Of a stretch of DNA of 64,000 nt, positions 3,137-64,000 are shown one piece after another. Origin of the DNA: an uncultured Chloroflexia bacterium (GTDB lineage Bacteria > Chloroflexota > Chloroflexia > Thermomicrobiales > UBA6265); contig CAVUJR010000003.1 of NCBI GenBank assembly GCA_963741805.1, forward strand, positions 56,876 to 120,875. Direction: 5' to 3'. Below the pieces are notes generated by a model, which had not been told where the DNA came from, searched no databases, and saw nothing but the letters and a program-made list of their open reading frames with translations. The position numbers and the translations under genes were made by a program. Positions within the stretch are counted from its first letter, which is position 1, and every line of letters begins with the position of its first letter.

Positions 3137-5240
3137 GCCGGGCGTTCGCGAGACGTTCCGCCCCGGCCGCCACACGTGGTGGGCGTGGGGCGTTGTCCTG
3201 ATCCTGCTCGACTTCTGGGTCGCGGCGAGGATGGGTCTGTTCTCGCTCACGTCAACTGTGACGATTGACGGGCGGTCGGTCGACGTCCTGAACATGTATG
3301 GCACGGTGGATCACCCGTTTCACGCATCACGGGCGGCCATGCTCCTGCGGTCGCTCCAGGATGGAGAGCTCCTGCGTTGGGTCGGCCAGCATCAGGGTGG
3401 CTATCCTGCCGAGTTCTACCCTCTCGGGATCGCGTGGCTGGATGTCGGGATCTGGGCGTCGTCGTTCGGCGCGGTGTCGATTCTCGCCGCGCACAAGGTC
3501 GCGGTGATCCTCGTTTTTTTGCTCCCCTCGCTCTCGTATTGGCTGCTCGCGCGCGGCGACCGGATTCACCCCTCCGTAGCGGTTCTCGCAATGGCGGTCC
3601 ATGTCGCCATCCCGGGGCATTGGCTGAACGGTGGGTATGAAGAGCTGGTTGGCTGGGGGCTGGTGACAAACGTTGCTGGAGGCTCGCTCGCGCTGCTCGC
3701 AAGCGCGGCGTTGGCGAGGTTTGTGCTCCGGCGCGAGTTTGGCATGGGCATTCTCGCCACCTTGGCGGCAGCTGGTGGCGCGGTGACGAATCCACGCTCT
3801 CTGTTTGCCCTCGTCATGGCCGCGCTCGCGCTGGTCGTCGTGGCGTTGTTCCAGCGGGATGGTGCCAACGCACGTGTGGTCGCGCGGAACGCGCTCGCGC
3901 GCATCGGGGCGGTTGGCGGCATCGCCCTCCTGCTCGCCGCGCCGGTCGTCCTCGCCCTGTTCCGATACAACAGCCTCTACTTCTTCCTGCACTACGAGTT
4001 CTACGACCCGATCTCGGAGTACTGGGACGCGTCAGCGATGGCCGTTACCACGGCCGTGCTCCTGCTCGCCATCGCCGCCGTGGTGCTGCTTGCCATTCCT
4101 CGTCTCGGCGGGGCATTGCGAGTCTCCCAGGGCGTGGCGCTGGCCGGAATCCTCTATGTCGGCCTGACCCTCTGGGTGGCGCTTTCCCCGGTCGTGCCGC
4201 CGCTGGTCGAGCAGCTTGAGGCGCCGCGGCTGATGCCCTTCCAGCGGCAGGTGATGATCTGGCTCGGCGCGGTTGCGGTCTGGATCGTCCTGCGTTGGAT
4301 TCTCGGCTGGGTTGGCTCGGCTCCGGTGCGTGGCGTGCTTGCGGCGGGCATCCCTGCCGCACTCGCACTGTTCATCCTGGTCGCGCACGTCAGGCCACTG
4401 AGCTTCGTCCCTGCAGAGCAGGTTGCCCTGCGCGACGTGAGCCTGACCGGCAACGCGGACTATGCGGACTTCGAGTCAGCGATCCGGTTGGGGGAGACAA
4501 CGCGGCCGGACGGTACGGCGATGTTCGTCATTGGTAACCGCGACGACTGGTGGCATCAGCAAATCTGGGCGCCGGCATACAGCGACGCGCGGTTCTACTA
4601 CGACGATTGGATGTGGTACTGGCACGAACGCCATGCCGGTCCGTACAACCCCGAGAACGGTTATTGGTTCCCCAACCCGACCGACGCGCTGGAGGGGACT
4701 TATCTGGACGACAACGGCATCGGCGTCGTCGTCGTCAGTGATATGTACGTGCCCTCAGGCGTACCGCCCCGGGAATCCGCCCGAACGAACCCGCGCCTTG
4801 AGCCGGTCGGCAGTGTCGGCGCGTGGGACGTCTATACGGTCCGGAACCCGTCGTCGATCATCATCGACGGCGACCAACGTCCGGAGAGCGTTACGGTCGG
4901 GAACCAGGATATTCGCGCGACGTTCACCGACGGTGACGGGACTATCGTACTGCGCCAGAACTGGTTCCCGCGTTGGGAAGCGACGGTCAACGGCGAGACG
5001 GTCGAAGTCCAGCGACGAGATGACGGGTACATGCAGATCGACGCACCGGCTGGTCCCGTCGATGTGCAGTTCACCTATGGGGTGACCGCCCTTGACTGGG
5101 CCGGACGCGGGGCGGTTGTCATCGGTATAGTGTTGCTGGGCATCGCGACCTGGCGTGGCCCGGAATTGCTTCGACGGCTCGACGAGAGCGCTCCAGGTAC
5201 GACTGAACGCTCATCTTCGCTTCCGGAAGGATCCGCATAG
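3129..5240 (+). CDS. Large polytopic membrane protein, YfhO-like / GT-C-fold glycosyltransferase candidate
   Basis: More than 10 hydrophobic helices followed by a soluble C-terminal domain ending in a WFPRWEATVNGE...VQFTY pattern and a final TM, as in YfhO-type proteins. Start chosen at ATG 3129, in frame with listed ORF 3051..5240. Confidence 0.55.
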   Translation: MPEPGVRETFRPGRHTWWAWGVVLILLDFWVAARMGLFSLTSTVTIDGRSVDVLNMYGTVDHPFHASRAAMLLRSLQDGELLRWVGQHQGGYPAEFYPLGIAWLDVGIWASSFGAVSILAAHKVAVILVFLLPSLSYWLLARGDRIHPSVAVLAMAVHVAIPGHWLNGGYEELVGWGLVTNVAGGSLALLASAALARFVLRREFGMGILATLAAAGGAVTNPRSLFALVMAALALVVVALFQRDGANARVVARNALARIGAVGGIALLLAAPVVLALFRYNSLYFFLHYEFYDPISEYWDASAMAVTTAVLLLAIAAVVLLAIPRLGGALRVSQGVALAGILYVGLTLWVALSPVVPPLVEQLEAPRLMPFQRQVMIWLGAVAVWIVLRWILGWVGSAPVRGVLAAGIPAALALFILVAHVRPLSFVPAEQVALRDVSLTGNADYADFESAIRLGETTRPDGTAMFVIGNRDDWWHQQIWAPAYSDARFYYDDWMWYWHERHAGPYNPENGYWFPNPTDALEGTYLDDNGIGVVVVSDMYVPSGVPPRESARTNPRLEPVGSVGAWDVYTVRNPSSIIIDGDQRPESVTVGNQDIRATFTDGDGTIVLRQNWFPRWEATVNGETVEVQRRDDGYMQIDAPAGPVDVQFTYGVTALDWAGRGAVVIGIVLLGIATWRGPELLRRLDESAPGTTERSSSLPEGSA

Positions 5241-5244
5241 TCTC

Positions 5245-6456
5245 ATGGTCCAACCCTCGCGTCATGACGATCTGGCGCTGACCGCGCCGGTATTCCCCGG
5301 TGGTTCAATCCTTTCGGCTATCTTCGACCGCGACCTGATGCGGCTATCCGACAGGGGAGGGGCGAGCGGGGCGATCGGCGACCGTTGGTCTGATATCTGC
5401 TCGGCCGAGCTCAGTTCCTGGCCAGATACCCGTCTTGTGACGCCTGACGGCCAGCACCTCGAAGTGGAACGCATCGTTCGGCTGGACGATATCCCGTCCG
5501 TGGCGAGGATCGCCTCTCGCCGCAAGCTCCAGAACCCGGATTACATCGTTGCGGGGCGCTCAGATGAGGGAACGCTGATGCTCTCCGCCGATGCGAAGTT
5601 TTCCGTGGAGACGGCCGGTGCCTCGCAGGTCAGCGCCGATGCACTTCGGTCGCTGGTGGACGTGGGGCCGATTCTCACCGAGCACATGGGCGGGCTCGAT
5701 CCGGATGCCGCGATCGTGGATGGCATCTTCCTCAGCCCGGATTACAGCCTGACGCACTACATGATGCGACGGAAGCGGGGATACCGGTCCGTCTCCGTGG
5801 ATCACGAGCAGATCCATCTGCTTCCGGTGCGGTCCGTGCCCTTCCTGAAGCCACTGGAAGGCGCCCGGCTGATTCCGGTCTACGCCGACGTTGACGGTTT
5901 CGACGGCGAGAGCCGATCCAGCCTCCTCGTGGGTTTGTATTACTTCCGGCTGGTGCGGGCTTCGTTCGGCTGCTGGAACGACATGATCGCCCCGCTGCTG
6001 GCGCCGAAGCAGGGACCAGAAGTCGACCTCGCCGAGATCGAGGACCGGACCCGCGCCTACGCGCGAGACGCGCGATCGGGCTGGGAGATCGTGGAGCGGT
6101 GGGATGCTGCCGCGGAGACGGTGCGTACCCAACGCGAACTCGTCAATCGCATCACCTCGGTCCCGATCGTCAACCGGGAGCTTCGAGATGAACTGGCGGC
6201 CGCGGTCAAGGACGTGGGAGTCGAAGCCCCGTCCATGAACAAGGTGCGGCGGCGGATCGGTTCCTGGTTTCGCGACCAGATCGTCGCGCAGATCGGCGTG
6301 CTACAACCACCGGTGACGGACTTTCCCGCTGTCGTGCACCAGCTGGAGTTGCTTGCGGAGGAGGTCCGCCAGGAATTGCCCGCTGCGACGACTCGAATCA
6401 TTCACGAGATACTGGATGAGGCGAGGCAAGACGCGAGCGAGTCGGTCGAGCCGTAA
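5245..6456 (+). CDS. Hypothetical protein with PD-(D/E)xK-like motif
   Basis: ATG 5245 lies 5 nt after the upstream stop. Motif NPDYIVAG-x11-SADAKF at aa 97-119. The rest is helical with no family I recognise. Confidence 0.5.
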
Positions 6457-6593
6457 CCCCTCGCGACAGTTTCCGGAACCGGCGATATACTCAACGCACG
6501 AGATCGATCAAGCACCCCGCGCGAGCGCGCGGACGGGTCAGGCTCACGCGCGCCAGCGATATCGGGCGGCGATGGGCGACGAGGGAGGATTCG

Positions 6594-7127
6594 ATGAGTT
6601 CTGAAGAAGGACAGGCGGCTCGACGTGTCTCGATGACCGTCAATGGCCAGCAGCGGTCGGCCGTTGTCGAACCGCGAACGCTGCTCGTGCACTTCCTGCG
6701 GGACGAGCTCGGTCTGACCGGCACGCACGTTGGATGTGACACGAGCCAATGCGGCGCGTGTGTGGTTGACGTGGATGGCGTTTCGACGAAGTCGTGCACG
6801 ATGTTTGCCGTCCAGGCCGATGGCGCGTCGGTCACGACGATCGAAGGTATCTCGGAGCGGGGCGCGTACCATCCGGTGCAGGAGGGCTTCTGGGAGAAGC
6901 ACGGCCTTCAATGCGGATACTGCACGCCGGGCATGATCATGTCGACGATTGAGTTGTTGCGCGAGAACCCGAACCCGACCGAGGACGAGATTCGTCATGG
7001 GCTCGAGGGGAACATCTGCCGCTGCACCGGGTACCAGAATATCGTCCGTGCCGTGCAGCACGCGGCGTCGATCATGAACGAGTCGGGCGCGCGCGCGGAC
7101 GCTGACGCGTCGCCAGTCGCGGACTAG
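6594..7127 (+). CDS. (2Fe-2S)-binding small subunit of a molybdo-hydroxylase (CoxS / xanthine dehydrogenase family)
   Basis: Motifs [12 protein letters not shown] and [13 protein letters not shown]...CRCTGY. GAGGGAGGA ribosome-binding site upstream of the ATG. Confidence 0.85.
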
Positions 7128-7137
7128 GGGGTCAGGG

Positions 7138-7986
7138 ATGTTCGCTTCATCGTTTGCATATCATCGCGCAGAGTCCGTGGCCGATGCCGCCGCGCGGCTG
7201 GATTCCAACCCTGACGCCAAGATCCTCTCCGGGGGTCACTCGCTGATCCCGGCAATGAAGTTGCGCCTGGCGATGCCGGGCGAGCTGGTCGACATCAGCA
7301 AGCTGGACGAGCTCAAATCCATCACGATCGGTGACGAGGTCCATATCGGCGCCGGCGTGACATACCGCGATGTCGCGGCGCATGCCGAGATCTCGCAGAT
7401 GTTCCCGATCTTCCGCGCCGCGATCAGCAAGATCGGCGACCTCCAGGTGCGGGCCCGTGGCACGTTTGGCGGTGCCGTCGCCCACGCGGACCCGGCGGCG
7501 GACCTGACGGCCGTGTTCGTGGCGCTGAACGGGCGCGCGAAGCTTGTGTCGTCCTCTGGTGAGCGCGAGGTGCCGGCCGACGAGTTCTTCCTCGACCTTT
7601 GGACCACGGCCATGGAGCCGAACGAGATCCTCACCGAGATCATCCTCCCACGGCCCGCCGAAGGCTCCCGGATGACCTACGTCAAGCATTCGCATCCGGC
7701 AAGCGGCTATGCCGTCGTGGGCATCGCCGCCGTGGCGAGTATCGATGGCGGTTCCGTGCAGGATGCGCGGGTGGTCGTGACCGGAGCGACGTCTCGCCCA
7801 GAGCATCTGACGGCGCTCGAGGACGCCCTGCGCGGGTCGCCACTGGACGCTGGGACCATCGCGTCGGCTGCGTCGCATGCGGCCGACGGTGTCGAGATTA
7901 ATGGCGATACATACGCCGATGAGGAGTATCGCGCCCAGCTCATGCGCGTCCTCGCCAGGCAGGCGTTGGAGCAACTGGCCGGGTAG
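7138..7986 (+). CDS. FAD-binding medium subunit of a molybdo-hydroxylase (CoxM-like)
   Basis: N-terminus F.Y.RA.SV.EA..L......K.L.GGHSLIP.MKLRL is typical of CO dehydrogenase/xanthine dehydrogenase FAD subunits. Confidence 0.8.
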   Translation: MFASSFAYHRAESVADAAARLDSNPDAKILSGGHSLIPAMKLRLAMPGELVDISKLDELKSITIGDEVHIGAGVTYRDVAAHAEISQMFPIFRAAISKIGDLQVRARGTFGGAVAHADPAADLTAVFVALNGRAKLVSSSGEREVPADEFFLDLWTTAMEPNEILTEIILPRPAEGSRMTYVKHSHPASGYAVVGIAAVASIDGGSVQDARVVVTGATSRPEHLTALEDALRGSPLDAGTIASAASHAADGVEINGDTYADEEYRAQLMRVLARQALEQLAG

Positions 7987-37826: not shown

Positions 37827-37988
37827 CGAGAACTCCCGAGGGGCGCATCGCGGACCGCTATCCGACCCGTGTGCCGCTGCCTGATTCCACGAAAGTCTAT
37901 CACTGCCGCCCGGTATACTTTCCCGCAGCATTGATACGCTCGTGTGCTGGCCTGGCGCCGGTTCGTATGGAAAGTCCCACCTCATCTC

Positions 37989-38933
37989 ATGGCTGATTTC
38001 ACGATGTCGTTGTTCGCGCTGGTCCTCGTCGTTGGGGCGGCGTTCGGGCTGGTGAACTGGGCGAAGCGGGCGGCGACTGGGGACCGCGCGGCGTCGATGG
38101 GCCTCTACCTCTTGTTCGGCATGCCCGGCGTGCTCCTGTTCGTCGCTGGCCTCGCACTGGTGTCCAACGGCAAGGAGGGCGGTTGGTTCGCGCTCGGTAT
38201 CGGGCTCGGGATGTCGCTGCCGCTCGTCCGCCGGTTCCGCGTGGCGCTCTCGAGAGTCACGCCGCTCGACCCGGAGTCCCCGATCGACTATTCGGGCCTC
38301 GCGATCCTGCTCTCCATCGCGGCGTTCCTCTTCTTCTCGCTCATCCTCAGCAACGAGCCCGTCGAGATCTCGCCGACCTCGACGGGCAGTATGGTGACGT
38401 CGCTCCTGATCAACCTGTTGACATTCCTCGGCCTGGCCTACGTTGCGGTGGGATACCGGAACTACCGAAATGGCGAGGAGGCGACGGTTCGTCTGGGTCT
38501 GACCCGTCCGACGGCCCAGCAGATACAGGTGGGCCTGATCGGCGTCGTCCCGGCGTTCGTCTTCGCGATCATCGGATCGGTACTGACGAACGTGCTCCAG
38601 CCGGACGTTGTCGACCGGCTCGGGGAGAACATCGACAACCTCACCTCAGGCGTGCAGAATCCCGCCGGCGCGATCCTGCTCGGCCTTTCGGCGGGCATCG
38701 GCGAGGAGGTGCTGTTCCGCGGAGCGCTCCAGCCGCGATTCGGCATCGTGCTGACGGCCGGCCTCTGGACGTTGCTGCATACCCAGTACGAACTGACGTG
38801 GATCATGGTCGGGCTCTTCCTTCTCGGCATGTTCCTCGGATGGATTCGCAAGCGCTATGGAACGGTCGCCGCGATCATCACGCATGCGACATACAACGCG
38901 CTGGTCGTGCTCTTGCAGATGACCATGAACTAG
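37989..38933 (+). CDS. CPBP-family intramembrane glutamic endopeptidase (CAAX protease-like)
   Basis: Motifs GIGEEVLFRG, LLH, and HATYNA in a polytopic membrane protein. Confidence 0.75.
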   Translation: MADFTMSLFALVLVVGAAFGLVNWAKRAATGDRAASMGLYLLFGMPGVLLFVAGLALVSNGKEGGWFALGIGLGMSLPLVRRFRVALSRVTPLDPESPIDYSGLAILLSIAAFLFFSLILSNEPVEISPTSTGSMVTSLLINLLTFLGLAYVAVGYRNYRNGEEATVRLGLTRPTAQQIQVGLIGVVPAFVFAIIGSVLTNVLQPDVVDRLGENIDNLTSGVQNPAGAILLGLSAGIGEEVLFRGALQPRFGIVLTAGLWTLLHTQYELTWIMVGLFLLGMFLGWIRKRYGTVAAIITHATYNALVVLLQMTMN

Positions 38934-39025
38934 GTCATGCTCCCCTGCATCTGAACAGGCGAGAGCAGCGAGCGAAGACGGTCCGGATGATCCCGGGATA
39001 ACGCATGAACGCAGCGGGGTGCCGC

Positions 39026-40636
39026 ATGAAAATCACCGAGATCCGGGATCTGGATGGGCCTAATCTCTTCTTGCCCGGCCCGGCGATCAAGCTCGAGGTC
39101 GAGGTCCCGGAGGGCGAGGCAATCCGCGTCGTCGACGAAACCGGTATTCAGGTCGATGCGACGCCAGAGGAGCTGATGGCCCGACTCCAGTCTGTCGTTC
39201 GTGATCTGCACCAGAGACTGGGTGCCGATGCGCCGGCATTCGCCTCCCGCGCAATGGAAGCGCCCGGCCACTATGTCGTCGCGTTCTCCTGGACGCATCG
39301 GCGGCTGTCCGAAGCATTGGCGAAATGCGCGTTCAGCCTCGTCAGCGGCGAGCGGAGCGACTTCGACGCGATCGTCGAGGAACTGAAGGCGCTCAACGAA
39401 AGCGCGCCGGACGACGACGACGCGCCGGAGATGCTGCCGACCGCGAGGCGAACCTTACCGATCATCGCGATCACCGGGACGAACGGCAAGACGACGACCT
39501 CTCGGCTGATCTCGTCGGTGCTTCGCCATGCCGGCCGCCGTGTCGGGACGACGTCGTCCGCCGGCGTGTTCATCAATGGCGAACAGGTCATTGCGGGCGA
39601 CTACTCGGGGCCGTCCGGCGCCCAGCGCGTCTTCCAGGAGCCCGGTCTCGACGTTGGCGTGCTCGAGACGGCGCGCGGCGGCATGCTGCTGCGCGGGCTG
39701 GCGTACGAGACGGCCGATGTCGGCGTGGTGACCAACGTCAGCGCCGACCATCTAGGCCTGCATGGGGTCTACACCGTCGAGGGGCTGGCGGAGGTGAAGT
39801 CGCTGGTTGTGCGGTACCTGCGACCGGACGGCTTCGCCGTTTTGAACGCCGACGACCCGCGTGTGCTGGCGATGCGAGACGTGACGCCGGCGCGCCCGTT
39901 CCTCGTCACCCGGCACGCGATCGCTCCGGACGTGCAGGCGCACATCGACGCCGGTGGCTGGGCCCTGACGGTCGACGATGCACAGGATGTGGTCTTTTGG
40001 CATGACGATGAGCAGGAGGTGCTGACCTCGCTCCGCGACGTACCGATGACCTTCCAGGGGCGGGCGCCGCATATGGTCGAGAACGCCCTGTGCGCGGCGG
40101 GCGCCTTGCTGGGAATCGGTCTGACTAATGTTGAGGTCAAGGCCGGCTTGGCCGCGTTCCACAACACGGCGAAGGACAACCGCGGTCGGTTGAACGTCTA
40201 CGACTACAACGGCGCCACGATCGTGCTCGACTTCGCGCACAACGTGGCCGGGCTGGAGCAGTTGGTCTCCTTTGGTCGCAACTTCCTCGGAGAGAGCGGT
40301 CAACTAACGACGGTGATCGGGACCGCTGGTGACCGTGAAGACGAGGTTTTCCGTGGCCTTGCGCGTGTTGCGGCGGAGCGCTCGGATGCCGTGGTGTTGA
40401 AGGACTCGCACCGCTACCTGCGCGGGCGCGAGATGGGCGACATGATCGCCCTCATGCGCGAGGGTATCGAGGCGAGTGGCCGCAGCGTCCCCGTCATGCA
40501 GGCTGACTCCGAGCGGGAGGCGAGCCTGATGGCGTTTGAGCGGGTGACGGCCGGCGATGTGATCTGCCTGATGTGTATCGAGGATTACGACTTCCTCATC
40601 CCCTGGCTCGATGAGCGGGGCCGTTCCATTTCCTGA
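39026..40636 (+). CDS. Cyanophycin-synthetase-like protein with N-domain and Mur-ligase-like M-domain only (no ATP-grasp domain)
   Basis: N-terminus MKITEIRDLDGPNLF..PAI parallels the CphA start. Residues ~150-537 align along their whole length with the M domain of the CphA at 53496..56132 (IAITGTNGKTTTSRLI...VLETARGG.LLRGL......VVTNV..DHLGL...). About 300 aa of ATP-grasp domain are absent. Confidence 0.7.
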   Translation: MKITEIRDLDGPNLFLPGPAIKLEVEVPEGEAIRVVDETGIQVDATPEELMARLQSVVRDLHQRLGADAPAFASRAMEAPGHYVVAFSWTHRRLSEALAKCAFSLVSGERSDFDAIVEELKALNESAPDDDDAPEMLPTARRTLPIIAITGTNGKTTTSRLISSVLRHAGRRVGTTSSAGVFINGEQVIAGDYSGPSGAQRVFQEPGLDVGVLETARGGMLLRGLAYETADVGVVTNVSADHLGLHGVYTVEGLAEVKSLVVRYLRPDGFAVLNADDPRVLAMRDVTPARPFLVTRHAIAPDVQAHIDAGGWALTVDDAQDVVFWHDDEQEVLTSLRDVPMTFQGRAPHMVENALCAAGALLGIGLTNVEVKAGLAAFHNTAKDNRGRLNVYDYNGATIVLDFAHNVAGLEQLVSFGRNFLGESGQLTTVIGTAGDREDEVFRGLARVAAERSDAVVLKDSHRYLRGREMGDMIALMREGIEASGRSVPVMQADSEREASLMAFERVTAGDVICLMCIEDYDFLIPWLDERGRSIS

Positions 40637-40748
40637 GCCAGCATTTGACGTATGGGGCTCTGGTCGCTAACCTGATGCGAAGGATAGTCAACGATCAACT
40701 AGGGTCGTGCGGCGGGTACATGCCCCCGGCGCGACCGGAGCAGCGACG

Positions 40749-41780
40749 ATGGCCACGGTAAGCCCACTCACATTCCACCCCGATCCCAAGACCGTCACCG
40801 GTCCGCGCGACAAGTTCGGGCGGACGATGAACTACTTGCGGATCTCGCTGACGGATCGCTGCAACTTCCGCTGCATGTACTGCATGCCCGCCGCGGGGAT
40901 GGTTTTCCAGCCGCGCGACGAGATGCTGACCGATGATGAGTTGGTCCGGCTTGTTGGTATTTTCGCCAAGGCGGGCGTGACGAAGCTACGCCTGACAGGC
41001 GGCGAGCCCACGGTGCGGCCACACCTGACCGAGTTGATCCGCGCGTTCAAATCGTTCCCGGGCATCAACGAGCTGTCCATGACAACGAACGCGCTCTTGC
41101 TCGGCAAGAAGGCGCAAGAATACAAGGACGCCGGTCTGGACCGTATCAACGTCAGCATCGACACCCTCGACCCGGTGAAGTTCCAGTTCATGACGCGCGG
41201 CGGCCGCTTCGACATGGTCTGGGACGGTATCAACGAAGCGGACCGCGTCGGTCTCGGCCCGATCAAGCTCAACAGTGTTGTCCTCCGTGGCCAGAACGAC
41301 CACGAAGTGCACAAGATGGCGGAGCTGACCATCGACAAGCCTTGGCAGGTACGATTCCTCGAGATCATGCCGATGGAGGGCGTCGGGCTTGTCTACGACG
41401 AGGGCCTCGTCACGTCCACGGAGACCCGCTCCGAGCTGGAGAAGCACTTCGGCCCGCTGGAGGAGCTTCCGGCGCCACCGGCCGATCCCGCTCGCCTCTG
41501 GAAGATTCCCGGCGCGAAGGGCACGATCGGCTTCATCTCGCCGATGTCAGAGCCGTTCTGCGAGACGTGCAACCGCGTCCGCCTGACCGCCGACGGGAAC
41601 CTGCGCCTCTGCCTGCTCCATGGCGACGAGGTGAACCTGCGCGACCTCGTGCGTGCCGGCGCGAGTGATGAGGACATCACGCAGGCCATGCTCGGCGGCA
41701 TCTGGAACAAGCCGTGGGGTCATGAAGCGTGGCAGCGCGAGATTCATACCGTTCGCGGGATGTCCCAGATCGGCGGATAG
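40749..41780 (+). CDS. moaA: GTP 3',8-cyclase (radical SAM)
   Basis: YLRISLTDRCNFRCMYCMP; a C-terminal Cys motif; ends GG. Confidence 0.9.
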   Translation: MATVSPLTFHPDPKTVTGPRDKFGRTMNYLRISLTDRCNFRCMYCMPAAGMVFQPRDEMLTDDELVRLVGIFAKAGVTKLRLTGGEPTVRPHLTELIRAFKSFPGINELSMTTNALLLGKKAQEYKDAGLDRINVSIDTLDPVKFQFMTRGGRFDMVWDGINEADRVGLGPIKLNSVVLRGQNDHEVHKMAELTIDKPWQVRFLEIMPMEGVGLVYDEGLVTSTETRSELEKHFGPLEELPAPPADPARLWKIPGAKGTIGFISPMSEPFCETCNRVRLTADGNLRLCLLHGDEVNLRDLVRAGASDEDITQAMLGGIWNKPWGHEAWQREIHTVRGMSQIGG

Positions 41781-42007
41781 GCCACTTTAACGTCCCAGTT
41801 GGCGGATGTGGGCCCTGGCGCGTGCGCCGGGGCCGCATTGTGTCCATCGCACATGCCGCCTTCGTGTGCGGAAAGAGCATGCGGATGTGTTGACATGAGG
41901 CACAACTTGTCCTGAAACCCTGCAACCGATAGAGTACGTACAGGTATGAGCGCGCCGGCTCGTCGGCGTGCCCACGGGGGAACACTCATCGGGGGAAGGG
42001 AGCGCGG

Positions 42008-43435
42008 ATGTCTGCACAAGCTGGGGGCGGCTGGCTCGAACGCCAGTTCAAGCTGTCCCAACTCGGGACGAACGTCCAGACCGAAATCATCGCCGGTCTG
42101 ACGACATTCATGGTCATGTCCTACATCATCGCGGTGAATCCGGCGACGCTGACCTTCGGCGGAACGGGCGAGCTGACGATCACACAGGTGGCCACCGTCA
42201 CCGCGCTGGTCGCCGGTGTCATGTCCATCGTTATGGGTCTGTACACGAACCGGGCCATCGCGATTGCGCCGGGCCTCGGCATCAACGCGATCGTGGCCTA
42301 CACGCTTGTGGGCAGCATGGGTCTCTCGTTCCCGGAGGCGATGGGCGTCATCGTCACCGAGGGCCTGATCATCACGCTGCTGGTGGTCACCGGCATTCGG
42401 CGCTACGTGTTGGAGGTCGTGCCGCTGGTCCTGAAGAAGGCGATCAGCGTCGGTATCGGCCTGTTCATCCTGTTCCTTGGCCTGAAGAACGCCGGCATCA
42501 TCCGCTTCCATAGCGGCGTACTCGGCGAGAATGGCGAGATGGGGACCTACACAGGGCGCCTGGACCTTGCGCCGTTGAACACCTGGCCGATCTTCGTCGC
42601 CATGGTCGGACTGCTGGTCATGCTCGTGCTCATGGCCCGCAACGTTAAGGCCGCGATCTTCTGGGGCATCGTGGTCGCGACCGTGATCGCGTTCATTGTG
42701 CCTGGTGACGTCGCGAAGATGCCGGCGGAACCCTTCGGCGGGCCCGATTTCAGCCTTATCGGCGACTTCAGCTTCAACTACTGGGGCAAGCTCGGCGCCT
42801 TGACCTCGATCCTCGTCATCATCAGCATCATGCTGTCCGACTTCTTCGATACCATGGGCACGCTTATCGGCGTCGGCGCCCAGGCGGGCTATCTCGACGA
42901 GAACGGTGAGCTGCCGGACGCGGACAAGCCACTGCTGGTCGACTCCCTGGCGGCGGTGGCCGGTGGCGCGCTCAGCGCGTCCTCGGCGACGTCGTACATC
43001 GAATCGGCGGCCGGCGTCAGCGTCGGTGGCCGCTCGGGCCTGACGGTCGTGACGACGGGCATCCTCTTCCTGCTCTCGCTGCCGCTGGTGGCGCTGGTCG
43101 AGGCGATCCCGGGGTCCGCGACGGCTCCGGCACTGATCGTGGTCGGCCTGCTCATGATGAGCGTGCTTGCTGATGACGAGGGGACCGATCGCCAGGGCAG
43201 GAAGCGCGGCATCAACTGGAACGACATCGAGGATGCGTTCCCGGTCGCGCTGACGATGCTGGTCATGCCGTTCACCTTCAACATCACGTACGGCATCGGC
43301 GCGGGCTTTATCAGCTACGTGCTGATCAAGGTCGCCAAGGGACATGCGCGGCAGGTGAACCCGGCGATGTACGGTGTCGCCATCCTCTTCTTGCTGTACT
43401 TCCTGCGCTGGGTGCTTTTCGACGCCCAGTTCTAG
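42008..43435 (+). CDS. NCS2-family purine (adenine/guanine/hypoxanthine, AzgA-like) permease
   Basis: N-terminus FKL...GT.V.TEI.AG.TTF..M.YII.VNP. About 13 TM helices. Confidence 0.85.
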   Translation: MSAQAGGGWLERQFKLSQLGTNVQTEIIAGLTTFMVMSYIIAVNPATLTFGGTGELTITQVATVTALVAGVMSIVMGLYTNRAIAIAPGLGINAIVAYTLVGSMGLSFPEAMGVIVTEGLIITLLVVTGIRRYVLEVVPLVLKKAISVGIGLFILFLGLKNAGIIRFHSGVLGENGEMGTYTGRLDLAPLNTWPIFVAMVGLLVMLVLMARNVKAAIFWGIVVATVIAFIVPGDVAKMPAEPFGGPDFSLIGDFSFNYWGKLGALTSILVIISIMLSDFFDTMGTLIGVGAQAGYLDENGELPDADKPLLVDSLAAVAGGALSASSATSYIESAAGVSVGGRSGLTVVTTGILFLLSLPLVALVEAIPGSATAPALIVVGLLMMSVLADDEGTDRQGRKRGINWNDIEDAFPVALTMLVMPFTFNITYGIGAGFISYVLIKVAKGHARQVNPAMYGVAILFLLYFLRWVLFDAQF

Positions 43436-43510
43436 TCGACGATGCGATGCGGGGCCGGGGAGTGTGCAATGTGTGCCGCTCCCCGGTCGCGCCGTTAACA
43501 GGAGCATTCG

Positions 43511-44483
43511 ATGACCATACGGCCGGAGATACGCAAGGTCGTTTTCACATATGAGGCCGAATCCGGGCTGCAGGATGCCGTGCGCGAGATCGTGCCAGGC
43601 GCGACGATCGTGCTCTGCGATTCGGACGACGACCTGCGGCGCGAGATCGTCGACGCGCAGATGACGATCGGCGGCAGGATCGATGACGAGACGCTGGAGT
43701 CGGCGTCGGAGTTGGCCTGGCATCACGTGCCGTGGGCGGGTGTCGAGCGCATCGCCACGCCCCTGATGGCGGAGAAGGGCGTCGTGTTGACCAACAGCCG
43801 TGGCATCAGCGCGCCGAACATGGCCGAGCACGCCATCGCGTTCATGCTGGCGTTCGGGCGAGCGTTGCCGGAGTTCTGGAAAGAGCAGCAGGCGAAGTCA
43901 TGGCGGGGGTGGTACGAGCGCCCGACATTCTTCGAGCTTACCGGCCAAACCGTGCTCTTGCTTGGTACCGGGGCGATCGGGCAGGCGATCGCCGAGCGGT
44001 TGCGGCCGTTCGGATGCCGCCTGATCGGCGCACGTCGGACCGGCGGACAACTGGATGGCCTCGATGAGGTTGTCACGTTCGACGCGCTGCCCCGTGTCCT
44101 GCCGAGTGTGGATCATGTTGTTAGCACTTTGCCGATGACGCCGCACACGGCGGGGATCTTCAACCGGGACCTCATCGAGGCAATGAAGCCGGGATCGTAT
44201 TTCTACAACCTTGGACGGGGTGGCACGGTCGACCAGGACGCGTTGATCGACGCGTTGAAGAGCGGCCATATCGCCGGCGCCGGGCTGGACGTCACCGATC
44301 CGGAGCCGCTACCGGCGGATTCGCCCACTGTGGGACGCGCCGAACGTCCTGATTACCGGTCACACCTCCGGCGCATCCCCGATGACCGGAGCGCGCGCGA
44401 TCGAGGTGCTGCGCGAGAACCTGCGGGCATACGTGGCTGGCGAGCCCCTGATCAACGTCGTCGATTTCGAGATGGGATATTAG
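43511..44483 (+). pseudogene. D-isomer-specific 2-hydroxyacid dehydrogenase, single frameshift near 44324-44327
   Basis: The NAD motif GTGAIGQAIA and RGG..D..AL are intact. After LPADSP the frame must shift by -1 to read LWDAPNVLITGHTSGASP...NVVDFEMGY*, ending at TAG 44481-44483. The listed ORF instead runs on to 44755 as Arg-rich sequence. Confidence 0.75.
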
Positions 44484-46464: not shown

Positions 46465-47808
46465 TGCGCTTTCCTGACTCCTCCTGCGATTGCTTCACCA
46501 GCATATCCAGCTCTTGCACGACCACGGCCCGCGGCACTTCACGCTGCTCGCCGGTCGCGAGGTTCTTGATCGAGACCTCTCCTCGCTGGAGCTCGTCCGT
46601 GCCGAGGATGGCGGCGAACGGGATCCCGCGGCGATCGGCGTACTTGAGCTGCGCGCCGATACCCTTGTTGGTGATCACCGACTGGTCGACCCGCAGCCCC
46701 TCATCGCGCAGCTCGCGCGCGAGCAGCGACGCGTCAGCCAGCGTCTCCTCGACAAACACCATCATCACATCGGCGACGGATTTCCGCGCGGGGAGGAGGT
46801 CGAATTCCTGGATAACTTCGAGAATGCGCTCGATGCCAAGCGAGATGCCGGTCGCCGGGACATCACGACCAAGGAACGTGCCGACCAGTCCGTCGTAGCG
46901 GCCGCCACGACGGCGACCGAGCCGACTTTGGGCTCCTCGACCACCGCTTCGTAGACCGGGCCAGTGTAGTAATCGAGGCCGCGAGCCAGGGCGAGATCGA
47001 TGCGGTACATGCTTTTCGGCACACCCAGGCGCTCGACGTTGTCGATGAGCTCGCGCAGTTCCTGCACGGCCTTCGCGCCTTGCGGCACATCGGCGAGTCG
47101 GTCGCCGGCAAATGCCAGCAGCTCGTCGTTCGTGCCCTTCGTGGTCACGATGTCGAGTACCTGGTTGGCGGCATCTTCCGAGACGCCGTTGCGCTGCATC
47201 TCGGCGAACACGCCGTCACGCCCGATCTTGTCGAGCTTGTCGATCGACCGGTAGATCGTATGCGCCTGCTCCGCCGGGACGCCGGCGATGGTTGCAAGGG
47301 CTTCCAGCAGCTGCCGGTGATTGATGACCACCACCGCACGGCCGAGACCGATCTGCTGCAGCGCGTCAGTCAGCACGTTCACCGCCTCAGCGTCGGCAAG
47401 GGCGGAAGAGGAGCCGACGATATCGGCGTCACACTGCCAGAACTCGCGGAAGCGACCGCGCTGGGGCTTCTCCGCGCGCCAGACAGGTGCCATGTGGTAG
47501 CGCTTGAACGGCATGACGAGGTCGTTCTGGTGCATCGCGACGACCCGGGCCAGCGGCACGGTGAGGTCGTAGCGGAGCCCGACTTCGCGTTCGCCCTGAT
47601 CCTGAAAGTGGTACATGAGCTTCTCGTTCTCGCCGGCCTTGCCGGTGAGGATCTCCATGTACTCCAGCGCCGGGGTATCGAGCGGCTCGAAGCCATGCTG
47701 CTCGAAGACCGAGCGGATGATGCCGAGCACGCGCTGGCGCAGCAGCATGTGCTCGGGAAGGTAATCGCGGAAGCCCTTGAGGACCTGCGGCTTACGTGTC
47801 GGTGCCAA
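46457..47808 (-). pseudogene. hisS: Histidine--tRNA ligase, frameshift near 46907-46911
   Basis: ORF 46765..47808 carries class-II motifs 1 and 2 up to ...EEPKVGSVA. The expected GGGRYDGLVGTFLGRDVPATGISLGIERI... is present in another frame and runs into ORF 46457..46768 (the anticodon-binding domain). Confidence 0.85.
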
Positions 47809-52214: not shown

Positions 52215-52391
52215 GGCGGGAGTGCTTCCTTCGCACGGTCGGGGAGGGGCGTCCGTGACGATGCTCCCCGATGATCAGTGTGTCACGCGTCCTCGAAACC
52301 CCGACGCTCGCACTGTGCGGGTGGCGGCCGGCCACCCTGGCGTACCTCGCATGATACCCGTTGCGATGCGCGGATGTCGTATCTTAAGACG

Positions 52392-52420
52392 TTGACGTGG
52401 TTCCGGGGACGCGGTACAGT
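52392..52420 (+). promoter_or_regulatory. Candidate promoter of the cyanophycin operon
   Basis: TTGACG, 17-nt spacer, TACAGT. Confidence 0.4.
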
Positions 52421-52508
52421 CGCCCGGAATCGGCGACGACGCCTTCGCGGCGTGCGGCCGTGCGCAACGTCCGCCCCGCGTCTGCGCAAGACAGGACCCA
52501 AATTACCT

Positions 52509-53355
52509 ATGCCATCCGAGACAACACAGCAGCCACAGCAGCAGGCGGAAGCCCCGTCGGCGACCGCGCGAGGGGTCATCATGCCCATCGGCGGCGCCGA
52601 GGACAAGTTGGATGACAAGGTCATCCTCTCCGAGTTCGTGCGGCTGGCGGGTGGCGACAATGCACGGATCGCGGTCGTCCCGACGGCTTCATCGATCGAG
52701 GCGGCCGGGCTGCGCTACAAGGCGATCTTCCTCGGTATGGGAGTCGAGAGCGCGGAGGTGGTCTACATCGGCAGCAGGGACGACGCCAACGGCGGTGAAA
52801 GCCTTGATCTGGTCGAGAACGCAACCGGCATCTTCCTCACCGGGGGAAACCAGATGCGGCTCTCCGCCATCATCGGCGGCACGCGCTTCGAGCAGCTCGT
52901 ACGCGCACGCAACGCGGCCGGGATGGTCGTCGCGGGGACCAGCGCCGGGGCGTCGATCCTCTCCGCGCATATGGTCGCCCTCGGGGCCAGCGGCGCGACG
53001 CCGAAGCTCCGCATGGCGCAGATGTTCGCCGGCTTCGGCCTGATCAACAACGTGATCATCGACCAGCATTTCCGCCAGCGTGACCGCATCGGCCGGTTGC
53101 TTTCGCTCGTCGCGAGCAACCCGGGCCTGCTTAGGGATCGGGATCGACGAGGATACCGCCGCGGTGATCGAGCCCGATAACACGCTGCGCGTGGTCGGGC
53201 GGCACAGTGTCACGCTCGTTGACGGCTCGCACATGACGTCCGATATTTTTCAGGTGAAGCGGTACGGCGAGATCACGATCAGCGATGCCCGGCTCCATGT
53301 GCTCGGGACAGGACGGCAGTTCGATATGGACGAGCGGAAGCTGCTCCAGGACTAG
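52509..53355 (+). pseudogene. cphB: Cyanophycinase (S51 peptidase), frameshift near 53131-53133
   Basis: ...MPIGGAEDK...GIFLTGGNQ...GTSAGASIL...IDQHF.QR.R.GRLL runs in ORF 52278..53180. After ...SNPGLL the sequence continues GIGIDEDTAAVIEPD... only in ORF 53080..53355. Confidence 0.8.
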
Positions 53356-53495: not shown

Positions 53496-56132
53496 GTGTT
53501 GAACATCCGTGAAACCCATGTCTATCGCGGCCCGAACATCTGGGCCCGCATGCCGGCGATCCACTACGTTCTTGACATCGGTGAGCTCGAGGACCGTCCC
53601 TCGAACAAGATCCCAGGCTTCTACGAGCAGCTGACCGAGGCGCTTCCTTCGCTCTACGACCATGGCTGCTCGATCGGCAAGCCGGGTGGCTTCCTGCGGC
53701 GGCTCCGCGAGGGCACGTGGATGGGCCATGTGCTCGAGCACGTCGCGCTGGAGCTGCAGAACCTCGCCGGCGGCGAGGTGAGCCGTGGCAAGACGCGGCA
53801 GATCGAAGAGCGGGGCGTCTACAACGTCATCTTCCAGTACGAGCAGGAAGATGTCGGGCTCGCGGCGGGCCAGCTTGCCCTTCGCATGCTGAACCACATG
53901 ATCTACAACACGGAGCCGGACACCGACTTCGTGCACGAGCACGAAGAGAAGGTGATCAAGCTCGCCGAGCGCTTCGCGTACGGCCCATCGACCGGCGCAA
54001 TCGTGCAGGAGGCCCAGCGGCGCGGCATCCCGGTCCTGCGGCTGGACCCGCGACGTTCCCTCGTGCAGCTCGGGCACGGCAAGTTCCAGCAGCGTATCTG
54101 GGCGACTGTGACGTCCGAAACAAGTGACATCGCAGTCAACATCGCCAGCAACAAGGAGCTGACGAATCGGCTGATGCACGAGATCGGCATCCCGGTGCCG
54201 CGTTCGATCGTCGTCTCGTCCGAGGACGAGGCCGTCGCCGTGGCAGGTCGGCTCCGCTACCCGGTGGTCATCAAGCCGCTGGACGGCAACCATGGGCGGG
54301 GGGTCTTCATCAACCTCGCGGACGAAGCGGAGGTGCGCGAGTTCTTCCCTTCGGCGCGCGCCGAGTCGCGTGACGGCCGGATCATCGTCGAGTCGTATAT
54401 CCACGGGAGGGACTACCGCGTCCTGGTGGTTCACAACCAGGTGATTGCGGTGGCCGAGCGTGTGCCGGCTCATGTCACCGGTGACGGGGTGCACACCGTC
54501 CAGGAGCTGATTGACATCACCAATCAGGATCCCCGGCGTGGCGTCGGGCACGAGAAGATCCTGACCCGTATTACGGTCGACAGCCAGACGATGGAGGTCC
54601 TGGAGCGAGACAGCCGGACGCTGGAGACGGTTCCAGCCGAGGGCGAGTTCGTCCAGCTCAAGCTGACCGGGAATATGAGCACCGGCGGCACCTCGATCGA
54701 CCGCACGGACGATATCCACGCGGACAACATCGAGATCGCCCGCCAGGCGGCGATGGTCGTCGGGCTGGACATCGCCGGCATCGACTTCATCACCGAGGAC
54801 ATCTCCATCTCCGCCCGTGACACCGATGGCGGTATCGTCGAGGTCAACGCCGGCCCCGGCTTCCGCATGCATACCAACCCGACGGAGGGGCACCCCCGCC
54901 ACGTCGGCCGGGCCGTCGTCGACATGATGTACGAGCGGAACGCGCCAAGCCGCGTGCCGATCGTCGCCGTGACCGGTACAAACGGAAAAACGACGACCTC
55001 GCGCATGATCGCGCACATCATGAAGACCGCCGGCAAGACAGTCGGCCTTACGACGACAGACGGCATCTATATCGACGGCACGCAGATGATGGCGGGCGAT
55101 ATGAGTGGCCCAACCAGCGCGCGGATGGTGCTGAAGAACCCGACGATCGACTACGCGGTGCTGGAAACGGCGCGCGGCGGCATCCTTCGCTCGGGACTCG
55201 GCTACGACCGCTGCAACGTCGCCGTCGTCACCAACGTCACCGGCGACCACCTCGGGCTCAAGGGCGTCGAGACGATGGCGGCGCTGGCCCGCGTGAAGTC
55301 CGTTGTGCCGGCGAGCGCGCTGCGCGACGGTGCGTCAGTGCTGAACGCCGACAACGAGTGGACTGTGCGCATGCAGAACGTCGCGCGCGGGGAGATCATC
55401 TTCTTCAGCATGGATGAGGAGAACCCGGTAATCCGGGACCATATCCGCGAGAAGGGGCGGGCGGTGCTCCTGAAGAAAACCAGGCAGGGCGAGATGATTA
55501 CCATCTACGAGAGCCGCCGTGAGACCTCCCTCCTCCTGGCGAGCCAGATCCCCGCGACCATGGACGGACGGATTCGCGTCAACATCGAGAACGCAATGGC
55601 CGCCGCGGCCGCCGCGCTCGCCGACGACGTCAATCTCGATTCCATCCGCCTTGGCTTGCGCACGTTTGGCAATTCGTTCTCGCAGGCGCCCGGGCGGTTC
55701 AATCTGCTCGATCTCGGTACGAAGCGCGTGCTCATGGACTATTGCCACAACGTCGCGGGCCTCCAGGCGGTCGCCGACTTCGTCAGTCGCATGGATGCTG
55801 ACCGCACGATCGGCGTCGTCAGCATGCCGGGCGACCGCTCGAATACCGACATGGAGGAGTTCGGGGCCTTGGCCGGAAAGACCTTTGACCAGTTGATCCT
55901 CCGCGAGGATAACAACACGCGTGGCCGGCCATCCGGCGAGATCGCGCGTCGGTTGAAGGAGGCGGCGATGAGCGCCGGGAAGGATGAGTCGGCGATCGAC
56001 ACTGTTCTCGATGAGAAGGAAGCCGTCCGGGCGGCGCTTGCGCGGTCCGAAAAGGGCGACCTGCTGGTGTTGCTCGTGGACAAGCCGATGGAAATCTGGG
56101 AAATGCTGACGGCGGGCGACATCACGCCGTAG
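53496..56132 (+). CDS. cphA: Cyanophycin synthetase (N, ATP-grasp G and Mur-ligase-like M domains)
   Basis: 878 aa; start ML.IRE..VYRGPNIW. ATP-grasp region (VVIKPLDGNHGRGV...). M domain GTNGKTTTSRMI... GTG start after GGGAGGGAAGGG. Confidence 0.9.
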   Translation: MLNIRETHVYRGPNIWARMPAIHYVLDIGELEDRPSNKIPGFYEQLTEALPSLYDHGCSIGKPGGFLRRLREGTWMGHVLEHVALELQNLAGGEVSRGKTRQIEERGVYNVIFQYEQEDVGLAAGQLALRMLNHMIYNTEPDTDFVHEHEEKVIKLAERFAYGPSTGAIVQEAQRRGIPVLRLDPRRSLVQLGHGKFQQRIWATVTSETSDIAVNIASNKELTNRLMHEIGIPVPRSIVVSSEDEAVAVAGRLRYPVVIKPLDGNHGRGVFINLADEAEVREFFPSARAESRDGRIIVESYIHGRDYRVLVVHNQVIAVAERVPAHVTGDGVHTVQELIDITNQDPRRGVGHEKILTRITVDSQTMEVLERDSRTLETVPAEGEFVQLKLTGNMSTGGTSIDRTDDIHADNIEIARQAAMVVGLDIAGIDFITEDISISARDTDGGIVEVNAGPGFRMHTNPTEGHPRHVGRAVVDMMYERNAPSRVPIVAVTGTNGKTTTSRMIAHIMKTAGKTVGLTTTDGIYIDGTQMMAGDMSGPTSARMVLKNPTIDYAVLETARGGILRSGLGYDRCNVAVVTNVTGDHLGLKGVETMAALARVKSVVPASALRDGASVLNADNEWTVRMQNVARGEIIFFSMDEENPVIRDHIREKGRAVLLKKTRQGEMITIYESRRETSLLLASQIPATMDGRIRVNIENAMAAAAAALADDVNLDSIRLGLRTFGNSFSQAPGRFNLLDLGTKRVLMDYCHNVAGLQAVADFVSRMDADRTIGVVSMPGDRSNTDMEEFGALAGKTFDQLILREDNNTRGRPSGEIARRLKEAAMSAGKDESAIDTVLDEKEAVRAALARSEKGDLLVLLVDKPMEIWEMLTAGDITP

Positions 56133-63421: not shown

Positions 63422-64000
63422 GTGCCCCGAACCACCCTACCAACCGTCGCCGATGTCCTGTCCCTGTCCGAGTCGTTTCTGGAGCCGATCGTTGCGCTGA
63501 CCACGCGCCTGACCGAGGTGCCGGCGCCGACGAATGACGAGGGTGATCGCGCCGTGGCCCTTCGCTCAGAGCTCGAGGCACTGGGTTACGAAGGCGTGAC
63601 GGTCGATGACCTGCACGACGTCACCGCGCGCATCCCGGGTGACGATTCGTCGCGCGTGCTGCTCGTCGCGGCGCATACCGATACGGTGTTCCCGCGCGGC
63701 ACGAACCTGACGGTGCGGCGGGACGGCGATACGCTGCACGCTCCGGCGGTGGGTGACAACACGGTGGCCGTCGCCTCCGTCGCGATGCTGCGCAAGGCCT
63801 TCAAGGACCTCGGCGTGACCCCGGCGATCGACATTGTCGTCACCGGGAATGTTGGTGAGGAAGGGCTTGGCGATCTGCGTGGCATGCGTGCGGTGGTCGA
63901 CGGGCTCTCTGACATCGCCGGGGCGATCGCGGTCGAGGGTCATCTGCTCGGGCGCATTACGCACCGTGCGGTCGGCAGCAAGCGCCTGAAGGTGACCGTT
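63422..64000 (+). CDS. M20-family metallopeptidase / deacylase (ArgE/DapE/PepT-like), N-terminal part (3' end outside window)
   Basis: GTG 63422 lies 7 nt after GGAGG. The frame stays open to the window end. Motifs AAHTDTVFP, GDN, and GEEGLGDLRG. Confidence 0.7.
   Translation, partial: MPRTTLPTVADVLSLSESFLEPIVALTTRLTEVPAPTNDEGDRAVALRSELEALGYEGVTVDDLHDVTARIPGDDSSRVLLVAAHTDTVFPRGTNLTVRRDGDTLHAPAVGDNTVAVASVAMLRKAFKDLGVTPAIDIVVTGNVGEEGLGDLRGMRAVVDGLSDIAGAIAVEGHLLGRITHRAVGSKRLKVTV

Follow-up and report, generated by a model that had tools for sequence, protein, structure and literature searches.

Known cyanophycin synthetases and the N+M paralog

Present descriptions of cyanophycin synthesis involve two enzymes. 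One, CphA1, comprises three domains – an N domain, in which the Cx19HxxEH motif is an endo-cyanophycinase site (PMC9262961), an ATP-grasp (G) domain that builds the aspartate backbone, and a Mur-ligase-like M domain (Mcore plus Mlid) that adds arginine. CphA2 keeps an active G domain, while its M domain is truncated and inactive (PMC10273328). The cphA1 gene is present in about 6% of complete bacterial genomes (PMC10206079), and a pangenomic study of Mur-domain proteins treated CphA solely as a fusion of ATP-grasp and Mur domains (PMC11915815). A 64,000-nucleotide stretch from an uncultured Chloroflexia bacterium of the Thermomicrobiales (contig CAVUJR010000003.1, positions 56,876–120,875), referred to below as the window, carries a cphB-cphA pair and, at 39026–40636, a gene for a further CphA relative. 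The gene encodes a relative of cyanophycin synthetase, conserved but uncharacterised, with the N domain and the arginine-adding domain and without the backbone-building domain. Its product, called here the N+M paralog, is probably an unrecognised extra enzyme of the cyanophycin nitrogen-storage pathway, because genes of its type sit near cyanophycin genes in several bacterial lineages.

The N+M paralog shares with CphA1 (TIGR02068; PDB 7LG5, 7LGQ and 7WAE) the N fold and both parts of the M domain. It keeps all known ATP/Mg2+ residues and all CphA-specific positions of the M domain, and it is encoded near cphB-cphA. In contrast to CphA1, it has no G domain, and hence no means of extending the poly-Asp backbone; polymerisation of Asp and Arg by this protein alone is predicted to be impossible. 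Its N domain is shortened and without the endo-cyanophycinase site, and most of the oligomer contacts that CphA1 makes through the G domain are necessarily absent. The comparison with CphA2 (PDB 7TA5, 8FXH and 8FXI) shows the opposite reduction. Both paralogs have a reduced domain set and an N domain without the peptidase motif, but the N+M paralog has a complete M domain, predicted to be active, and no G domain. The initial annotation, made by a model from the sequence alone, had drawn the same contrast, correctly according to PMC10273328.

The gene and its parts are as follows.

39026..40636, plus strand: gene for the CphA paralog without G (N + M domains; 536 amino acids (aa) plus stop), from the open reading frame (ORF), family alignment, AlphaFold2 and PDB structural matches
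39026..39415, plus strand: N domain (residues 1–130), a shortened CphA N fold without the Cx19HxxEH site, from hhalign, an N-only AlphaFold model and Foldseek
39416..39460, plus strand: acidic linker (residues 131–145, ...DDDDAPEMLPTARRTLP), from the family alignment; no match to the G-domain hidden Markov model (HMM)
39461..40180, plus strand: M core (residues 146–385), from Pfam Mur_ligase_M, mapping to TeCphA1 residues and invariant columns
40181..40633, plus strand: M lid (residues 386–536), from Pfam Mur_ligase_C; R388/H405 correspond to R731/H748 of TeCphA1

The ORF is unbroken from the ATG at 39026 to the stop codon at 40634–40636. The initial annotation had given its product as 537 aa, one more than the 536 aa that precede the stop. 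The family alignment places the start at this ATG (MKITEIRD...), which has a GGGG-rich stretch ahead of it, and gives no support to the alternative ATG at 39005. The motifs ITGTNGKTTTSR, VLETARGG, VVTNVSADHLG, VENALCAAGALLG and LDFAHN were all located in the protein.

Pfam matches are to Mur_ligase_M (149–360) and Mur_ligase_C (387–516). Against the NCBIfam model of cyanophycin synthetase, TIGR02068, the protein scores 388.9 bits (cutoff 850), with only model positions 475–854 of 862 matched; against PRK14016 it scores 358.6 (cutoff 877). MurE follows at 123 bits (cutoff 257), with the other peptidoglycan Mur ligases below it, FolC at 47.6 and MurT at 28.2. None of the NCBIfam models scanned reached its own cutoff. 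Grouping with an already characterised family of the MurT, CapB or FolC kind, which the initial annotation had considered, is thus not seen, and the ranking of PDB matches is the same.

The AlphaFold2 model of the full-length protein has a predicted local distance difference test (pLDDT) score of 93.3 and a predicted template modelling (pTM) score of 0.90. Its top PDB structural matches in Foldseek are all CphA1, with E of 1e-36 versus 5e-21 for other Mur ligases. Its alignment to CphA1 takes in N and M, passes over G and extends across ~600 columns; that to MurE spans only ~390. Source records that name relatives of the protein call them just 'Mur ligase family protein' or, by automatic annotation, 'cyanophycin synthetase'.

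The M domain

The M domain has the Mur_ligase_M/Mur_ligase_C fold, P-loop, Mg2+ ligands and DH motif that are common to MurC–F, MurT, CapB/PgsB and FolC. Unlike these Mur ligases, the protein has no N-terminal UDP-binding domain (no Pfam match) and carries a CphA N fold instead. The outgroup Mur ligases lack the CphA-specific ARGG, GD..GP and RGR motifs of the protein. Identity to the M domain of the resident CphA is 34% (E 5e-62). In a comparison with PDB sequences the best matches were all CphA1, at 231 bits with the single sequence and 364 bits with the family profile, versus at most ~100 bits for other Mur ligases. The collinearity of the C-terminal part with the CphA M domain, claimed initially, is borne out by the stretch of TIGR02068 matched, by this identity and by the presence of the motifs that had been quoted.

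The M core contains the P-loop (G151–T157), the Mg2+ ligands T156, S178 and E214, and D241-H242, as well as the CphA-specific motifs A216-R217-G218-G219 and D192..G195. The M lid contains R388 and H405, which contact ATP phosphates, G435-D436-R437 and R466-G467-R468. In TeCphA1 the ATP-Mg2+ residues are N497, K499, T500, T522, E558, R731 and H748 (PMC9427784). They correspond to N153, K155, T156, S178, E214, R388 and H405 of the N+M paralog, and all are invariant in its family. The adenine-stacking F692 of TeCphA1 aligns with an H349 that is invariant in the family; this position varies among CphA1s too.

Conservation in the M domain was compared between 35 members of the clade of the N+M paralog and 41 full-length CphA1s, with a threshold of at least 90% in both groups. 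There are 44 such positions, and all 44 have the same residue in the two groups; no position conserved in both was different. Twenty-one of the 44, including A216-R217-G218-G219, D192..G195 and R466-G467-R468, are absent from four outgroup Mur ligases, and the other 23 are generic to Mur ligases. Because all of the shared positions are identical and none is switched, the active site resembles that of the CphA1 M domain and not a retargeted one. The M domain is apparently catalytically competent. The suggestion that it might ligate a different amine, or decorate a different carboxylate polymer, finds no support in this comparison.

The N domain

The likeness of the N-terminus to CphA was the weakest point of the initial annotation, since it is invisible to BLAST and Pfam. 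BLASTP of the N-terminus against the resident CphA was not significant (E 0.19), nor was the match of the whole protein to Pfam PF18921, the CphA N domain. Among 22 N-terminal segments searched with Pfam, PF18921 was found in one, at E 0.043, and an N-only profile run against PDB sequences returned only chance matches, such as plectin.

Profile and structure comparisons nevertheless agree with that claim. The family N-terminal profile is collinear with the N domain of the resident CphA (single-comparison E 2e-7), and an N-domain HMM built from 34 full-length CphA1s matches residues 1–33 and 53–125 in register. With hhalign, the family N profile matches the CphA1 N domain with 98.2% probability (P 4e-14, 138 columns), while the same query gave 0.1% against the G and M profiles as controls. 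An AlphaFold2 model of residues 1–132 has a pLDDT of 95. The top 13 PDB matches of this model in Foldseek are all CphA1 or CphA2 (E 4.5e-5 to 0.02, query template modelling score (TMq) 0.56–0.73), and the next fold is LuxS (E 0.07, TMq 0.33). On the profile and model matches, rather than on BLAST or Pfam, the N-terminal region is identified as a shortened CphA N domain.

The N domain is ~30 residues shorter overall than that of CphA1. The segment of ~45 residues that bears Cx19HxxEH in CphA1 is replaced by a short variable stretch, and in the hhalign alignment the HxxEH positions fall on A..QS. None of the 35 clade members has HxxEH, versus 34 of the 42 full-length CphA1s in the set. An alternative metal site at H62/E78/H82 was considered and rejected: these residues are near-invariant in Thermomicrobiales and unconserved in the Actinomycetota and Chloroflexia members.

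Only E5, R7, L9, G11, P12, N13, P19 and W89 are conserved in the N domain across the clade. The GPN loop is the most conserved element. In CphA1 this loop packs against the M domain and contacts the bound polymer (PMC9262961), and its conservation here points to N+M as a natural substrate-binding and functional unit.

Absence of the G domain

The acidic linker sits where CphA1 has its ~320-aa G domain. Neither the Pfam ATP-grasp domain nor a local CphA1 G-domain HMM matches the protein, and the domain HMM check shows Mur_ligase_M and Mur_ligase_C only, in agreement with the absence first noted. No frameshifted ATP-grasp segment was found upstream. The intergenic gap to the preceding gene, which encodes a CPBP protease, is 92 bp, and a tblastn search of the 64-kb window with the G domain of the resident CphA found cphA only; the next best match (E 0.23) is 21 kb from the N+M gene. 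The same architecture recurs in more than 100 sequence clusters (520–565 aa), and also in the finished genomes of cultured Kribbella and Terrabacter. For these reasons the G domain is taken as truly absent and not lost through error.

An artefact or pseudogene, in which assembly errors had cut short or frameshifted a copy of cphA, is effectively excluded, as is a mis-read MurE-like peptidoglycan Mur ligase. Frameshifts do occur in the window, in hisS and in a 2-hydroxyacid dehydrogenase gene, but the recurrence in clusters and finished genomes, the lack of any G remnant and an identity of only 34% to the resident cphA argue against an artefact. The absence of the Mur-ligase N-terminal domain and MurE scores far under the cutoffs argue against a MurE.

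The two frameshifted genes were also compared with their relatives. The hisS gene (46535–47799, minus strand) is split across two frames near 46,900, and intact relatives have 440 aa; the 2-hydroxyacid dehydrogenase gene (43514–44480, plus strand) is split near 44,320, and intact relatives have 326 aa. These splits suggest indel errors in the assembly, or pseudogenes. Gene fragmentation akin to that of the window is seen in locus L001 (ERZ25039504 contig_5254).

Family and phylogeny

The family was collected by an exhaustive profile search, with 2,033 proteins at E ≤1e-30, and the best 150 representatives were classified with local N, G and M HMMs. Among these 150, ~35 are ordinary N+G+M CphA1s and ~30 are of the type of the N+M paralog, with a short N domain plus M and 520–600 aa. 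The traits of this clade, in addition to its length, are a short CphA N domain with ExRxLxGPN...P and no HxxEH, an acidic linker and a complete M domain. The protein of the window has every one of them in the family and clade-wide alignments.

Other forms without a complete G domain are also found among the best 150. Six proteins (P0173, P0181, P0183, P0190, P0220 and P0261) have an N domain, a G stub of ~50 aa and an M domain, and in eight (P0172, P0179, P0208, P0223, P0237, P0239, P0258 and P0262) the G domain has been deleted internally and lacks its middle third. The N domains of both groups are strongly CphA1-like, which, with the G stub of proteins such as P0181, P0183 and P0220, distinguishes them from the N+M paralog. 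A second type without a functional G domain has a CphA-type M domain that is likewise uncharacterised, and ~570 aa (e.g. P0155, P0163, P0189 and P0214). Its N-terminal region of ~170 aa differs from that of the N+M paralog, and both N-domain HMMs missed it, barring weak matches of 1–40 residues (P0155, P0163, P0198, P0207 and P0216). P0155 matches Pfam DUF4938 (PF16292), a domain with no match in the N+M paralog at E up to 1. At the only locus of this DUF4938 type examined (L091, 5283–6995), cphA was not found nearby.

Single proteins show further arrangements. In P0232 (1109 aa) the N and M domains are followed by ~500 unassigned residues. P0132 (972 aa) consists of two tandem CphA-type M domains (10–394 and 580–956) without N or G, and P0164 (602 aa) is a fusion of a peptidyl-tRNA hydrolase domain to a CphA-type M domain.

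A neighbour-joining tree was built from 131 M domains with an outgroup. All CphA-type M domains, including that of the N+M paralog, group against the outgroup with 100% bootstrap. Within them the N+M type forms one deep clade (78% bootstrap after removal of two rogue sequences) and the DUF4938 type forms a separate clade. The sporadic G-less forms are scattered inside the CphA1 crown, and so look like recent deletions or fragmentary gene calls; they may represent natural deletions that recur. The N+M clade branches outside this crown. The split of the N+M and DUF4938 types from CphA1 has 62% bootstrap without the rogues, and with them the deep splits have 12–33%. Because the deep bootstraps are weak and long-branch attraction to the outgroup is possible, the placement of the clade outside the CphA1 crown is tentative. 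What is clear is that the N+M paralog did not arise by recent deletion from the resident cphA.

Part of the clade has an additional domain. Orthologs in Terrabacter and Actinomycetales have a C-terminal extension of ~180 aa (L009 11651–12187, L010 4103–4633 and L013 11702–12250), homologous to the TPR_5 domain of P0147 (residues 622–740, 54% identity). This suggests a protein-protein interaction module.

Distribution and linkage to cphB-cphA

The named members of the clade are from Thermomicrobiales and Chloroflexia metagenome-assembled genomes (MAGs). A scan of species-representative genomes gave further full-length matches at 35–50% identity. These were in Sphaerobacteraceae (L005), a Chloroflexia MAG (L057), Kribbella sp. 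NBC_00889 (L007), Kribbella sp. NPDC051718 (L016), Terrabacter sp. BE26 (L009), T. aerolatus NBRC 106305 (L010), a Nocardioides MAG (L008) and five Actinomycetota MAGs (L006, L011, L013, L014 and L044).

Four other genes of the window are needed for the comparison of these loci.

37944..38933, plus strand: CPBP/Rce1-like intramembrane protease, from NCBIfam and Pfam; directly upstream of the N+M gene and co-directional
40707..41780, plus strand: moaA (GTP 3',8-cyclase), TIGR02666 379 bits; directly downstream of the N+M gene
52278..53180, plus strand: cphB (cyanophycinase), TIGR02069 186.5 bits, above cutoff
53496..56132, plus strand: cphA (full-length CphA1, N+G+M), TIGR02068 1170.8 bits, cutoff 850

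All four lie where the initial annotation had put them. It had, however, regarded the N+M gene as encoded away from cphB-cphA and its neighbours as giving no clear functional hint, and on both points the comparison shows otherwise. The spacing of 11.6 kb to cphB in the window is conserved synteny in Thermomicrobiales, and in Actinomycetota and Chloroflexia the distance is 0.3–7.4 kb, often with the genes tail-to-tail. Linkage to cphB-cphA is the main functional hint that the neighbourhood gives.

The linkage was tested by tblastn of window proteins against all loci of the N+M type. Outside Thermomicrobiales, a complete cphB-cphA lies downstream, on the other strand, at every locus with enough flanking sequence. 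The list below gives the interval between the end of the N+M gene and the 3' end of cphA.

L010, Terrabacter aerolatus: 322 bp
L009, Terrabacter sp. BE26: 360 bp
L011, Actinomycetota MAG: 361 bp
L057, Chloroflexia MAG: 639 bp
L044, Actinomycetota MAG: 2.2 kb
L016, Kribbella sp. NPDC051718: 4.2 kb
L013, Actinomycetales MAG: 4.4 kb
L007, Kribbella sp. NBC_00889: 5.0 kb
L006, Actinomycetota MAG: 7.4 kb

In a divergent clade member, L089, the gene is tail-to-tail with cphA at 284 bp. A search that started from CphA revealed the linkage within Thermomicrobiales as well. There the gene is 8.8 kb from cphB in ERZ1300058:NODE_5, with the same housekeeping genes between as in the window, and ~15 kb from cphA in ERZ27286916:k141_411173. 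Four further Thermomicrobiales pairs of N+M gene and cphA were deduced from contigs of equal length in both match lists. In total, cphB-cphA was found within 0.3–15 kb of the N+M gene at 13 of 14 informative loci from Thermomicrobiales, Chloroflexia and Actinomycetota.

The resident CphA has an intact Cx19HxxEH (C58..H78-E81-H82), and the CphA1s that neighbour N+M genes elsewhere also keep their own such sites. These neighbouring CphA1s form one clade (90% bootstrap), in which that of the window groups with the Actinomycetota ones. This suggests that the N+M gene and its neighbouring CphA1 have been inherited together for a long time.

The genes adjoining the N+M gene differ between lineages. 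The local order in Thermomicrobiales is prfB, parB and then, divergently, the CPBP gene, the N+M gene, moaA, an optional permease and the 2-hydroxyacid dehydrogenase gene. In Kribbella the N+M gene follows a fabI-like reductase, and genes for an extracytoplasmic function (ECF) sigma factor and a DyP peroxidase lie between it and cphA. The CPBP protease was rejected as a functional partner. It adjoins the gene at Thermomicrobiales and Sphaerobacteraceae loci only and is absent beside the Actinomycetota and Chloroflexia orthologs; because it is confined to lineages in which the whole region is syntenic, its adjacency was not counted as functional evidence.

Several other features of these loci were recorded. 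A gene for MoaA or a MoaA-like radical SAM protein (38–40% identity) lies 2.7–4 kb upstream of the Actinomycetota orthologs (L006–L009, L013, L016 and L044, at ~5,000–7,600), so that MoaA proximity occurs in both lineages; it may reflect shared regional ancestry, coincidence or function. An M20-family peptidase gene divergently adjoins the G-less gene in L089 (4098–5336, minus strand), and another lies ~7.5 kb downstream of cphA in Thermomicrobiales (L085 20093–21253 and window 63434–64000, both plus strand). The M20 peptidase may serve as a dipeptidase when cyanophycin is broken down, or may have nothing to do with it. In the beta- and gamma-proteobacterial loci L019, L022 (Nitrosomonas europaea), L023, L026, L028, L036, L038 and L065, and in one myxobacterial locus (L033, Polyangiaceae), the G domain of the matched cphA is preceded, at ~2.3–3.4 kb, by a CphA N-domain match; this arrangement is consistent with two tandem cphA genes. 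A 695-aa ORF in the window (41744–43831, minus strand) overlaps the permease gene (42008–43435, plus strand). It is rich in Arg, His and Asp, of low complexity, and almost certainly a spurious high-GC ORF.

Possible functions of the N+M paralog

By analogy with CphA1, and with a probability of about one half, the N+M paralog would be a stand-alone, ATP-dependent CphA-type ligase that adds side chains (Arg or Lys) to cyanophycin-type acceptors, acting in trans to CphA1. Architecture, fold, residue conservation, clade membership and linkage are observed, while the chemistry set out here, the acceptor, the amino-acid donor and the action in trans are inferred from them. The reduced N domain would pack against the complete M domain as a structural partner that cradles the substrate, and not as a peptidase. 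The enzyme would bind ATP-Mg2+ and phosphorylate a free carboxylate, as the M domain of CphA1 does, and the alpha-amino group of arginine (or lysine) would then be ligated to it. A cyanophycin chain or short primer whose C-terminal Asp is unmodified is the most likely acceptor, with the beta-carboxyl of that Asp as the reacting group. Since a protein without the G domain cannot extend the backbone, it would depend on acceptors from another source, for which the CphA1 of the neighbouring gene is the most plausible candidate. The N+M paralog might add M-domain capacity, as a supplement or for rescue, or attach the first Arg residues. Of the options listed in the initial annotation, action in trans with CphA appears to fit best.

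Several points weigh against this function. The gene has never been seen in an operon with cphA; the two are tail-to-tail or have unrelated genes between them. At L090, a clade member and the one exception among the 14 informative loci, cphA is missing from the 10 kb to each side of the gene, and the Actinomycetota loci cannot be counted as independent. The proximity could come partly from an ancient local duplication plus inherited synteny, and not from function. M domains and primer-generating N sites are intact in the neighbouring CphA1s, so that no activity is obviously lacking that the paralog could supply; complementation of a defective resident CphA1 is ruled out, since its G, M and N-site motifs are intact. 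Finally, the match in specificity to CphA1 is drawn solely from the comparison of conserved positions. It is also possible, though less probable, that the same amide-ligase chemistry serves a carboxylate polymer, peptide or metabolite unrelated to cyanophycin, the proximity to cphBA being a relic of duplication and synteny. The missing operon, the housekeeping or unrelated nature of the intervening genes and L090 would all fit such a substrate, as would the absence of cphA linkage at the one DUF4938-type locus, the deep branching of the clade outside the CphA1 crown and the loss from the N domain of ~45 residues that include the cyanophycin-cleaving site. Set against it are the retention of all 21 CphA-specific M positions, with no conserved position switched, and a linkage that persists in three lineages at 35–45% protein identity with different intervening genes.

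Two other roles would keep the paralog within cyanophycin metabolism. The first ligations are reported to proceed very slowly in all CphA1s (PMC9262961). A dedicated initiator would bypass them once cyanophycin stores are exhausted, by joining Arg to free Asp or a small acceptor to give beta-Asp-Arg or short primers. A monomeric N+M enzyme without a polymer-cleaving site could suit small acceptors, and the linkage to cphBA fits equally. Such a role is nonetheless unlikely, as the neighbouring CphA1s keep the Cx19HxxEH primer-generating site and no sequence feature suggests that the acceptor is a small molecule. A non-catalytic role, in which the paralog would bind cyanophycin or CphA1 and serve as regulator, scaffold or sensor, has a precedent in CphA2, which shows that CphA domains can turn non-catalytic (PMC10273328), and the TPR module of some clade members would be in keeping with it. 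The P-loop, the Mg2+ ligands, D241-H242, R388 and H405 are, however, invariant across a clade diverged to ~35% identity. Invariant catalytic residues are typical of an active enzyme, and this makes a non-catalytic role very improbable.

A broader proposal, doubtful at present, is that the clade of the N+M paralog is a third class of cyanophycin enzyme with its own role, be it initiation, rescue of Asp ends or control of Arg/Lys content, and that it descends from an N+M ancestor that predates the fusion. CphA1 would then have arisen by later insertion of an ATP-grasp domain into such an ancestor, and the N+M paralog would not be a degraded CphA1.

Significance

No description of a G-less CphA-like enzyme was found in the open-access literature (subscription-only papers were outside the search), and there the name 'CphA3' is used only for an Aeromonas beta-lactamase. 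The domains and their chemistry are known; it is their architecture in a conserved clade and the linkage of this clade to cphB-cphA that appear to have gone unrecognised so far. The function proposed for the N+M paralog is directly testable, since the gene is present in strains that are in culture and have finished genomes (Kribbella sp. NBC_00889, Terrabacter sp. BE26 and T. aerolatus NBRC 106305).

If the N+M paralog does act as a side-chain ligase in trans to CphA1, it would be a small, possibly monomeric enzyme for decorating poly-Asp-type materials, and thus of biotechnological interest. In vivo, different proteins could then divide the work, one extending the backbone and another loading the side chains. 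This would bear on how cyanophycin synthesis starts, how chain ends with unmodified Asp are handled and how the side-chain composition is set. For the question of how CphA1 acquired its three domains, the deep position of the clade is relevant as well.

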